From positions 1-42,165 of IMG/VR virus record IMGVR_UViG_3300029116_000014: 42,165 nt of DNA; one strand, 5' to 3'. A model generated the notes under the pieces. It searched no databases, was not told where the DNA came from, and was given only the letters and a program-made list of their open reading frames with translations. Every line of letters begins with the position of its first letter. Position 1 is the stretch's first letter. The translations under genes and the position numbers were made by a program. Shown here in pieces: positions 15,566 to 16,881 of this stretch. The DNA is from a virus.

Positions 15566-15658
15566 ATGTATATTAACCCGTTTGTGGCGGGCGTGCTTGC
15601 CACACTGGGCGCAGAAATCGTGCTCCTTGTGCTCTACGCCGTTACGCATAAGGAGTAG
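15566..15658 (+). CDS. Micro-ORF encoding a 30-aa hydrophobic peptide
   Basis: GGAGGTG SD 7 nt upstream. MYINPFVAGVLATLGAEIVLLVLYAVTHKE. The N-terminal motif M-x-INP-xxx-GVLA is shared with the ORF at 16289. Confidence 0.45.
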   Translation: MYINPFVAGVLATLGAEIVLLVLYAVTHKE

Positions 15659-15881
15659 CATTAGCAAGGCTTAGCGGCGGCATAGCATTGCTGGGCAGAG
15701 CAATGGCATAGCACAGCAGGGCAGAGCAGAGCAATGGCATAGCTGGGCAGGGCATCGCAATGGCAAAGCACAGCGTAGATACGCAAAGGAATTGCAAAGC
15801 GTAGACAGGCGTTGAAATGCCGCGCAAGGGCAGACCGAGGGCAAACAAAGGGCAAACCAAGGGCACACCGAAAGGAGGGCA
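15655..15881 (+). repeat. T-poor degenerate repeat block 1 (GGCATAGC-type units, then AGGGCA units at an exact 11-bp period)
   Basis: ATGGCATAGC / GGGCAGAGCA units lie at 15680-15770. AGGGCA starts at 15827, 15838, 15849 and 15860 (period 11) and at 15876. 15821-15885 contains no T at all. Confidence 0.85.
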
Positions 15882-15885
15882 GAAC

Positions 15886-16122
15886 ATGGAGGAACGGAGC
15901 TACAAGGAACTGCGGCAGGAAGTGAAAAACGACCTGATACGGATGTACGGCGGCGCGGTGCTTTTAACGCTCGAACAGTGCATGAAAGTGTACGGTTTGA
16001 CGGACAGAGACGCTGCAAAGAAGGTTATTCGTGCACCGAGGGTTCTCGGTGAAAGACGGGTGGTTTACTACATCGGCGACGTTGCAAGCGACATCGCAAA
16101 GCGGCGCGTCGGGAACGTCTGA
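15886..16122 (+). CDS. Small DNA-binding-like protein (excisionase/MerR-type HTH-like)
   Basis: Internal ATG of ORF 15817..16122, preceded by AAAGGAGGG. 78 aa. LTLEQCMKVYGLTDRDAAKKVIRAPRVLGERRVVYYIGDVASDI resembles the Xis/AlpA-type HTH layout. Confidence 0.5.
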   Translation: MEERSYKELRQEVKNDLIRMYGGAVLLTLEQCMKVYGLTDRDAAKKVIRAPRVLGERRVVYYIGDVASDIAKRRVGNV

Positions 16123-16198
16123 GGGCAAACCGAGGGCAGTCCAAGGGCAAACAAAGGGCAAACCGAGGGCAGTCCGAGGGCAGACAAAGGGCAACAGA
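16122..16198 (+). repeat. Seven tandem 11-bp units (consensus AGGGCAAACCG)
   Basis: AGGGCA starts at 16122, 16133, 16144, 16155, 16166, 16177 and 16188, an exact 11-bp period. The array begins on the stop codon of the preceding gene. Confidence 0.9.
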
Positions 16199-16288
16199 AG
16201 AAGAAGGCAATAAAGCAATACAGCAATAACTACTCTCTCTCACTAACGTTCGAGAGAGTAGGACGCACACACGACAGGAGGAAAAATC

Positions 16289-16450
16289 ATGGTTATCAAC
16301 CCCGTACTTTTCGGCGTACTCGCCTGCATCTTCACGCAGCTCGTGCTGCTGTTCGGGTGGGGCTTTTACCACCGCGTTCTCAAGGACGAGCTGAACAAGC
16401 GAAAGACGCTTTTGCTGAAAGCCGCTCAGATGCGCTGTGAGCGCCGCTAA
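16289..16450 (+). CDS. Small membrane protein (53 aa), paralogue of the 15566 peptide
   Basis: AGGAGG SD. MVINPVLFGVLACIFTQLVLLFGWGFYHRVLKDELNKRKTLLLKAAQMRCERR. Confidence 0.5.
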   Translation: MVINPVLFGVLACIFTQLVLLFGWGFYHRVLKDELNKRKTLLLKAAQMRCERR

Positions 16451-16532
16451 GCACTCAGGCATGAAATTACATGCCGAGGGGTGCGAAAACGCGACACGCG
16501 CCGTCTGAGGGCGCGGAAAGGGGTGATACGCA

Positions 16533-16673
16533 ATGACCGACGGCATCAAGCGGCGGAACGTAATCCGCGAGATGCAGAAACGCACGATCGGCGAGGCGCT
16601 TTACTCGAAAAAGATCGGCAGGAAGCCGAACGCAAGCGCTAAGAAAATCGGCGTACTGCCAAAACGAGATTAG
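16533..16673 (+). CDS. Small basic protein (46 aa)
   Basis: ATG preceded by GGAAAGGGGTG. MTDGIKRRNVIREMQKRTIGEALYSKKIGRKPNASAKKIGVLPKRD. Confidence 0.35.
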   Translation: MTDGIKRRNVIREMQKRTIGEALYSKKIGRKPNASAKKIGVLPKRD

Positions 16674-16850
16674 CCGCGCAAGGGCAAGGCAAAGCGCAGC
16701 AGAGCATAGCAAGGGCAAGGCATGGCGAAGCAGAGCGAGGGCATAGCGAAGCAGAGCGAGGGCATAGCAACGCAGTGCACTGCAACGGCAAGGCATAGCA
16801 TTACACAGCTCAGCGAGGGCATAGCATGGCAAAGCTATGCGAGGGCAAAG
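16673..16850 (+). repeat. T-poor repeat block 3 (GCGAGGGCATAGC units, including a 21-bp tandem duplication)
   Basis: AGGGCA at 16681, 16712, 16738, 16759, 16816 and 16842. GCGAAGCAGAGCGAGGGCATA occurs twice in tandem (16725-16766). The block opens with the same GCCGCGCAAGGGCA 14-mer as 15819-15832. Confidence 0.85.
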
Positions 16851-16881
16851 CTTGAGGAACGAAACAGGAGGACAAAAAATC

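Follow-up and report, generated by a model that had tools for sequence, protein, structure and literature searches.

The stretch of DNA analyzed here (the window; 42,165 nucleotides, positions 1 to 42,165 of IMG/VR record IMGVR_UViG_3300029116_000014) is that of a temperate phage or prophage of gut Clostridia of the Oscillospirales type. Between 15655 and 16860 it carries three T-poor blocks of AGGGCA repeats interleaved with very small genes, and we found that these repeats are two unrelated elements placed side by side rather than the single element type that a first-pass annotation, made from the letters alone, had seen in them. The looser repeats of blocks 1 and 3 are pentameric and are tied to the gene of a Cas7-like protein of the RAMP superfamily (p209, 209 amino acids). 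Judged by sequence and predicted structure, this gene and its arrays appear to be a member, with a variant GC core, of the VIPR (Viral Interference Programmable Repeat) kind, so that very recent work would already account for the main element. Cooperative protein binding is the probable role of the strict 11-bp arrays, which bracket the gene of p78, a 78-residue protein with a predicted winged-helix fold. We are fairly confident that two independent modules, one of VIPR type and one of p78, interleaved in the early rightward operon, are the best overall explanation of the locus.

The repeats fall into two classes with different periods

The hexamer AGGGCA occurs 43 times in the window against 19.2 ± 3.8 in shuffled sequence, a count that none of the shuffles reached. 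As the first-pass annotation had counted, 18 copies lie between 15827 and 16847 (5 + 7 + 6), all on the + strand; two further + strand copies were found at 15718 and 15749. Most of its other descriptions also held: seven copies from 16122 to 16188 and four from 15827 to 15860 keep an exact 11-bp phase, the second array begins on the last base of the TGA that ends the gene at 15886-16122, a 21-bp tandem is present (16719-16775, 2.7 copies, 91% matches), and T makes up 8-10% of the three blocks and is absent from 15821-15885. The 14-mer GCCGCGCAAGGGCA, described as opening both blocks 1 and 3, is indeed found at 15819 and 16674, but in block 1 it opens the 11-bp sub-array only and not the whole block.

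Blocks 1 and 3 hold a finer pattern, which had not been described: they consist of GC(A/G)NN units with a period of 5 or 6 nt (GCA-to-GCA spacings of 5, 5, 5, 5, 6... nt). Segmentation of these looser blocks resolved runs of 3-5 GC(A/G)NN pentamers with hexamers (GCAATG, GCGAGG and others) between the runs, and Tandem Repeats Finder reported periods of 21, 26 and 31. A chain detector, which links successive GC(A/G) at steps of 5, 6, 10 or 11, scored three places only in the 42 kb, all on the + strand, with 24, 7 and 24 units, the maximum in shuffles being 6. The logo of 662 pentamers reads G 1.00, C 1.00, A.76/G.21, N, A.57/G.24. A coding reading of the arrays was rejected, as neither 5 nor 11 nt is divisible by 3 and relatives do not preserve a reading frame, and Rfam (evalue mode, 13.5-19 kb) returned no family and no hammerhead ribozymes. 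Membership in CRISPR-Cas was likewise rejected: there is no repeat-spacer array with repeats of ~25-40 nt, and no further cas-like genes were found among the early genes scanned. The earlier statement that the repeats are not CRISPR is literally true, although the associated protein is a member of the CRISPR RAMP superfamily. The features of this first module are as follows.

15655..15811, + strand: pentamer/hexamer array B1a, candidate vrRNA repeat tract; about 22 clean GC(A/G)NN units with GCAATG hexamers, then degenerate units
15788..15832, + strand: invariant segment GGAATTGCAAAGCGTAGACAGGCGTTGAAATGCCGCGCAAGGGCA 3' of B1a, whose last 14 nt recur at the start of B3
16674..16860, + strand: pentamer/hexamer array B3, candidate vrRNA array; about 32 GC(A/G)NN units with an internal 21-nt duplication, reaching the ribosome-binding site (RBS) of the RAMP gene
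16882..17511, + strand: vipr-like gene of p209, a single-domain (Cas7-like) RAMP with the C-terminal G-loop GIGQWRNSSKGRF

The pentamer arrays adjoin the gene of a Cas7-like protein homologous to Vipr

No match to p209 was found in Pfam, PHROG, NCBIfam or, by direct sequence comparison, the PDB, and its homologues number more than 7,700 at 90% clustering and ~1,900 clusters at 50%. The AlphaFold model of p209 (pLDDT 70.5, pTM 0.65) gave Cas7-family structures only (type VII Cas7, Csm3 and Cas7-11) among its top 50 PDB matches in Foldseek, with E down to 6.6e-6 and TM-scores of 0.45-0.51. A profile of diverse p209 homologues compared with PDB sequences matched type VII Cas7 (E=5e-5) and Csm4 (E=4e-3) over the glycine-rich loop GIGQWRNSSKGRF, and PADLOC reported a weak Cas7_IIId match.

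VIPR is a very recently described form of RNA-guided DNA recognition and a proposed ancestor of the CRISPR RAMP proteins. As the two 2026 Doudna-lab preprints describe it, Vipr is a phage-encoded ancestral RAMP of ~20 kDa (bioRxiv 10.64898/2026.04.26.720920) that forms a filament on a pentamer-repeat vrRNA and recognises DNA (bioRxiv 10.64898/2026.04.26.720920, 10.64898/2026.04.26.720927). A vrRNA comprises 9-16 repeats of YNNGG, in which GGY is conserved and NN is hypervariable, and it ends in an invariant 3' tail; pairing with double-stranded DNA is through the NN bases, every third target base being skipped, and competing phages are repressed; DNA targeting was shown experimentally for the VIPR of SUSP1; a vap accessory gene is frequent and stand-alone vipr genes also occur; and seven types are distinguished, with the alternative consensus sequences NNNGG, YNNNG and NNNNG and with staggered and ribozyme-interspersed arrays (bioRxiv 10.64898/2026.04.26.720920). 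In SUSP1 Vipr one protomer binds each repeat, G1 being contacted by H17 and D177 and G2 by R138 and W178, and the Y3 pocket includes R179 (bioRxiv 10.64898/2026.04.26.720927).

Alignment of a diverse p209 family with the SUSP1-type Vipr family by hhalign was full-length (180 columns, probability 88.7%, E 2.6e-6); the diverse alignment was needed for this result, a shallow one giving a probability of 22% only. A RAMP with a G-loop and thumb homologous to Vipr is thus encoded beside same-strand tandem pentamers that combine a conserved core with hypervariable bases. In the alignment the G1 contacts H17 and D177 are replaced by T17 and Q194, and the G2/Y3 contacts W178 and R179 are retained as W195 and R196; residue numbering in the wV8 orthologue agrees with the published SUSP1 Vipr contacts. 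Put in the VIPR register G1-G2-Y3-N4-N5, the repeat units read R-G-C-R-N, which fits the consensus YNNNG (as C-R-N-R-G), and the substitution of both G1 contacts with retention of the Trp-Arg pair would fit a relaxed first base and an invariant GC, as far as an alignment rather than a structure can indicate. Across 70 loci of the p209 family we found no conserved neighbour gene; the missing vap neighbour is not disqualifying, because stand-alone vipr genes have been reported in the preprint.

Array units turn over rapidly beside near-identical proteins

Where the RAMP is 97-100% identical, neither the location nor the strand of the arrays changes among relatives; the chains range from 9 to 37 units and their unit content differs from phage to phage, and the units of B1a vary despite near-identical flanking genes. 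Such rapid turnover beside near-identical proteins is as expected of guides under diversifying selection. By contrast with the units that precede it, the 44-nt segment after B1a is near-identical in 20 relatives; its predicted fold is not significant (z -0.35), and its invariance recalls that of the 3' tail in a vrRNA. No obvious structured tail follows B3, nor does a terminator precede the RBS of the RAMP gene.

In more distant relatives the association persists in altered form. An array 5' of the gene is still present where the RAMP is 79-81% identical. At 66% identity one locus (L075) has short chains on both flanks of the gene, and another (L032) scores none. At ~69% and ~59% identity the array lies instead 3' of the gene and is more degenerate. 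In two loci of the 69%-identity clade (L033 and L036, 4627-5226), an ORF of ~200 amino acids, which we take from its appearance to be a homing endonuclease of HNH/AP2 type, interrupts the interval between the vipr-like gene and the degenerate array 3' of it.

Gene and array are linked across phages and genomes

A scan of IMG/VR with the DNA pattern (GCANN)5GCA, in which no protein was used, returned eight degenerate arrays that adjoin p209 homologues (45-98% identity) on the same strand, among them an array of ~900 nt (L212). Nine further arrays from the same scan adjoin a second family of proteins of ~200 amino acids that end in GFGDFRPTFGR, are mutually homologous and correspond to phrog_4652. 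This family has members in Felixounavirus-like phages, phiHSIC, Medea1, Trine and LittleE, and it includes the SUSP1 Vipr ALH47069.1; its genes are flanked by modules of ~11 pentamers and a hairpin. The pentamer core differs by phage, being GCA in phiHSIC, GGT in wV8 and GGC in LittleE. On re-reading the SUSP1 locus we found one NNGGY array upstream of ALH47069.1 and ALH47068.1 and three downstream of them, matching the preprint.

The linkage was also seen in genomes from GTDB, where 77 of the 80 loci returned were analyzed (p209 homologues 43-67% identical; hosts Faecalibacterium, Oscillospiraceae, Lachnospiraceae and some distant phyla). For this we used a GC-only scan in place of a motif-agnostic periodicity scan, which A/T tracts and the identity of GC with its reverse complement had confounded. 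The strongest GC-periodic window lay at most 1 kb from the p209-homologue gene in 42 of the 51 scoring loci, against 16.1 expected; 41 of these 42 windows are on the strand of the gene, and 32 are downstream of it.

Several individual arrays were also noted. In the Listonella phage phiHSIC (L230, AY772740.1), three modules of ~10 NNGCA pentamers and a hairpin lie at 4614-4895, 3' of the Vipr-like ORF22; the region is probably a vrRNA array, and the annotated ORF21, which overlaps these modules on the opposite strand, is probably not a true gene. Mycobacterium phage LittleE (L234) has NNGGC arrays 3' of gp34/gp33 at 5150-5470, each followed by a tRNA-like T-arm sequence (GGTTCGAGTCC or GTTCGATTC), and the sequence suggests vrRNAs with a tRNA-like 3' tail. 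At 900-1400 on the - strand of L110, directly after a gene ending in GGFGDFRPTFGRA, stand four tandem units of ~105 nt, each of 11 NNGCA pentamers, a hairpin and a T-run; to judge from its sequence this is a textbook vrRNA array, recovered by DNA pattern alone. Perfect pentanucleotide microsatellites, (GCAGA)9-15 and the like, were seen in the IMG/VR loci L113, L126, L146, L152, L163, L176 and others, several of them from one human-gut data set, together with (GCACA)n, (GCAAG)n and (GCAGG)n. Genes of SSB or replisome-organizer homologues occur elsewhere in several of the (GCAGA)n loci.

The 11-bp arrays bracket the gene of p78 independently of the RAMP gene

The second module comprises four features.

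15827..15881, + strand: upstream 11-bp array, 4 phased AGGGCA and one at +16, continuing into the RBS of the p78 gene
15886..16122, + strand: p78, 78-residue protein with a predicted winged helix (Xis/BldC-like), presumed to bind the 11-bp repeats
16122..16198, + strand: downstream 11-bp array, 7 phased AGGGCA, beginning on the p78 stop codon
16230..16261, + strand: hairpin CTACTCTCTC-TCACTAACGTTC-GAGAGAGTAG of the p78 module, between the 11-bp array and the next gene (z-score -3.1)

Neither Pfam nor PHROG has a match to p78. Its AlphaFold model (pLDDT 89.5) runs H-E-H-H-E-E-H and contains a beta-alpha-alpha-beta-beta winged-helix topology; Foldseek matches are weak (E >= 0.046), the best specific ones being the excisionase RdfS and BldC (probability ~0.9). 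RdfS and BldC are reported to bind DNA as head-to-tail multimers or filaments.

The first-pass annotation had named conservation of copy number and phase in related phages as a check. In relatives the 11-bp arrays are kept on both sides of p78; the copy number varies and the motif itself can switch. Among the relatives that carry p78, 1-6 copies lie upstream and 5-8 downstream, the latter in all of them, including those without the VIPR module. The early operon of one such group (L100-L108) consists of p78, a small membrane peptide, ERF or RecT, p178, HNH and SSB, without the RAMP gene and the pentamer arrays, and it retains 11-nt arrays on either flank of p78, with the same hairpin after them. 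The stem of this hairpin shows compensatory changes in relatives (ATCTCT/AGAGAT, AACCC/GGGTT) and its loop is conserved. The two modules are thus independent, and the idea that p78 is a VIPR accessory protein was rejected on these grounds, p78 and its repeats being present without the RAMP and the RAMP family having no conserved neighbour.

The repeat motif changes together with the protein. AGGGCA-N5 repeats are found where the helix-turn-helix (HTH) of p78 reads LEQCMKVYGL(T/S)DR, and GATAACA/ATCAACA-N4 repeats where it reads LEQAAKVYGF(Q/R)DKR. From the exact 11-bp phase and this switch of motif with HTH, the repeats would be protein-specific direct-repeat sites about one helical turn apart. 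Since the 11-nt arrays are kept without the RAMP, since motif and HTH switch together and in view of the predicted fold of p78, we read the arrays as phased head-to-tail sites for p78, and on sequence and model they are probably cooperative binding sites. The operator reading offered earlier for all three blocks, with its link to the Xis/HTH-like gene, is supported for the two strict 11-bp arrays, on the strength of relatives and a predicted winged helix whose fold matches are weak; the iteron and centromere readings fail for the looser blocks. For the latter, the suggestion of a multi-site platform for an RNA-binding protein came close to what we found.

Small winged-helix proteins such as P2 Cox, 186 Apl, lambda Xis and Streptomyces BldC bind head-to-tail on direct repeats at about one helical turn. 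Like them, p78 is a small predicted winged-helix protein accompanied by 4-8 direct repeats at 11-bp phase in a temperate-phage early operon; unlike them, it has no detectable sequence homology to these proteins, its repeats bracket its own gene rather than a promoter pair or att site, and its binding is putative. The parC/ParR centromere of plasmid R1 has two sets of five 11-bp direct repeats and is similar in having such repeats in two sets, but the region examined here holds no ParM/ParA partner, the phage has an integrase, and p78 has a predicted winged helix, not a ribbon-helix-helix.

Proposed mechanism and rival explanations

By analogy with SUSP1, the pentamer arrays (15655-15811, with the segment to 15832, and 16674-16860) would be transcribed with the operon and processed, and p209 protomers would bind them one per repeat, gripping the GC core through the retained Trp-Arg of the G-loop and leaving the variable bases exposed. 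The resulting filament may recognise double-stranded DNA of competing phages by a gapped code and silence it. The 11-bp direct repeats would be head-to-tail sites on one face of the helix for p78, which may oligomerise on them, as Xis, Cox/Apl and BldC do, and so control the early operon around its own gene.

The locus resembles type II VIPR (SUSP1) in encoding a single one-domain RAMP of ~20 kDa with a G-loop on a phage genome, homologous by profile-profile alignment, and in its flanking same-strand pentanucleotide arrays with a conserved core and hypervariable positions, one of them followed by an invariant segment. It differs in that the core is R-G-C here and G-G-Y in SUSP1, with both G1-contact residues substituted; that the arrays run to 22-32+ units (~900 nt in L212) with periodic hexamers, whereas SUSP1 has separate vrRNAs of ~100 nt with 9-16 repeats and a pseudoknot tail; and that it lacks a conserved vap neighbour and forms part of an early operon in a temperate Clostridia phage, where targeting is putative. 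With the Cas7 backbone subunits (Csm3, type VII Cas7, Cas7-11) and the filament of the array-less type IV-B Csf2, p209 shares a predicted RRM, thumb and G-loop and what would be one protomer per short length of RNA repeat. In contrast to the class 1 effectors built of Cas7, it is accompanied by no CRISPR array and, among the early genes scanned, by no further cas-like gene; it lacks a second RRM, and its RNA period would be 5-6 nt with a base-specific core, theirs being 6 nt and sequence-independent.

Several of these observations count against the explanation proposed here. The pentamer core is GC where the preprints give GGY, the arrays far exceed 9-16 units, hexamers recur every 3-6 units, B3 is without an obvious structured tail, and the variable positions are biased, being T-poor and purine-rich. 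Confidence in the p209 model is only moderate (pLDDT 70.5) and its TM-score to Cas7 is ~0.5. The VIPR role at this locus is proposed from sequence and predicted structure. Searches of 1.85 Mb of fetched loci for DNA targets (three registers, skips of 0-3) yielded nothing above shuffled guides and low-complexity matches only, within few databases and models; IMG/VR scans with two 22-base gapped patterns, a narrow set of rules, gave 0 matches, and none of the 72 IMG/VR matches to a 16-base target seed extended beyond chance. For the second module, the co-variation of p78 and motif amounts essentially to one motif switch, all Foldseek matches of p78 are above E 0.04, and the 11-bp arrays may act at the DNA or the RNA level.

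Some of these same points would suit a cis-regulatory leader or scaffold, in which the RAMP coats its own untranslated leader and autoregulates translation or stabilises the early transcript, without DNA targeting. B3 runs directly into the RBS of the RAMP gene, the arrays are long and continuous, their variable positions are compositionally biased and the target searches came back empty; however, the array is downstream of the gene in 32 of 42 homologous loci, unit content turns over fast beside near-identical proteins, and DNA targeting by the homologous SUSP1 system was shown experimentally in the preprint (bioRxiv 10.64898/2026.04.26.720920). We consider a leader of this kind quite unlikely. 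The main reading of the first-pass annotation, in which every one of the three blocks would serve as DNA iterons, centromere or replication origin for a phage initiator or partition protein, is highly improbable. Such a role might be read from one-strand direct repeats at an 11-bp phase in an early region that has ERF, SSB and a putative gene for a replisome organizer within a few kb, but blocks 1 and 3 have a period of 5/6 nt and track the RAMP gene across distant phages and genomes, the 11-bp arrays track and bracket the 78-residue gene and not replication genes, and the early region examined contains no partition genes in a phage that has an integrase. As to the replication origin raised in the first-pass annotation, nothing points to one here; the gene at 20089 that it called a replisome organizer lies ~3 kb from the repeats and has a sub-threshold wHTH Pfam match only.

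The 11-nt arrays could instead work in RNA, as G-quadruplexes, as weak Shine-Dalgarno-like landing pads or as antiterminator sites. They keep one orientation within a transcribed operon, their GGG tracts are separated by 8-nt spacers, GAGG/AGGG resembles a weak Shine-Dalgarno sequence, and a conserved hairpin with compensating changes follows array 2. Against this, GATAACA/ATCAACA replaces AGGGCA at the same phase and place, so that neither the G-tracts nor the likeness to a Shine-Dalgarno sequence is conserved, and the co-varying p78 has a predicted DNA-binding winged-helix fold. Relatives carry GATAACACACC repeats without G-tracts at the positions of the AGGGCA arrays, and the G-quadruplex suggested earlier is accordingly not a conserved property of the site. 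We regard an RNA-level role of these arrays as unlikely. Other candidates, namely a TRAP-like triplet-binding attenuator, a CsrA-type sponge, antisense Rho rut sites, Chi arrays, primase GCA sites and an R-loop origin, were dropped once the link to the RAMP gene and the VIPR preprints had come to light.

Within the reading of the locus as a VIPR-type and a p78 module, it is conceivable, but we would put it forward only tentatively, that the clostridial p209 family is a separate VIPR lineage with a reading code of its own. In such a lineage the core would be G-C and both G1 contacts would be replaced; the arrays would be long and continuous, with a hexamer setting the phase every 3-6 units; each unit might expose three bases or another skip rule might apply; and processing would be from early mRNA rather than from discrete small-RNA genes. 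The p78/11-bp module may then insulate the array or switch its transcription. The large p209 family, found mostly in gut Clostridia prophages and in some metagenome-assembled genomes of Planctomycetota, Chloroflexota and other groups, has an architecture of gene plus pentamer array with a different repeat core and array layout, and the locus is therefore a natural specificity variant for how the protein reads its repeat. It also offers a route to inter-phage conflicts in Faecalibacterium-type gut bacteria, and the p78/11-bp module provides a clear-cut example, amenable to testing, of a joint switch of specificity in a small winged-helix protein and its phased repeats. These variant features and the co-located p78 module make the locus worth experimental follow-up.

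Genome context and other repeats in the window

The repeats are placed among small genes of the early rightward region, and strong divergent promoter-like sites were found between the genes of an XRE repressor and a Cro-like protein. Among GenBank phages the locus has no close relatives, ERF and four unannotated fecal contigs being the sole matches; in IMG/VR there are many. Other genes of the window are listed below.

10200-11282, - strand: integrase
14146-14562, - strand: XRE repressor
14670-14936, + strand: Cro-like gene
15566..15658, + strand: gene of a 30-residue hydrophobic peptide (M-Y-I-N-P-F-V-A-G-V-L-A...), from the ORF list, kept in relatives, directly 5' of array B1a
16289..16450, + strand: gene of a 53-residue hydrophobic peptide, paralogue of 15566-15658, kept in relatives
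16533..16673, + strand: gene of a 46-residue highly basic protein (MTDGIKRRNVIREMQKR...), ending just 5' of array B3, kept in close relatives
18062-18679: ERF
19677-20075: SSB
32066-33304: large terminase

The two paralogous micro-genes (15566-15658 and 16289-16450) share the N-terminus M-(Y/V)-I-N-P-(F/V)-(V/L)-(A/F)-G-V-L-A, and each stands ahead of one repeat-rich region. The 46-residue basic protein has no family match and may have a role with array B3 or the RAMP.

Two further repeats were observed outside the early region. At 23417-23616 an 18-bp tandem of 11 copies with a 54-bp super-period lies in coding sequence, inside the ORF 23127-23867; it encodes hexapeptides of the type GNAWVSGDARVS, and Pfam reports a YdcK beta-solenoid repeat and a weak bactofilin match. 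At 28563-28614, in a non-coding stretch from 28411 to ~28620, a perfect 11-bp tandem of TTGCTTAGATG (4.7 copies, 100% identity) directly follows a terminator-like hairpin (28527-28563) and may be another phased array of binding sites.

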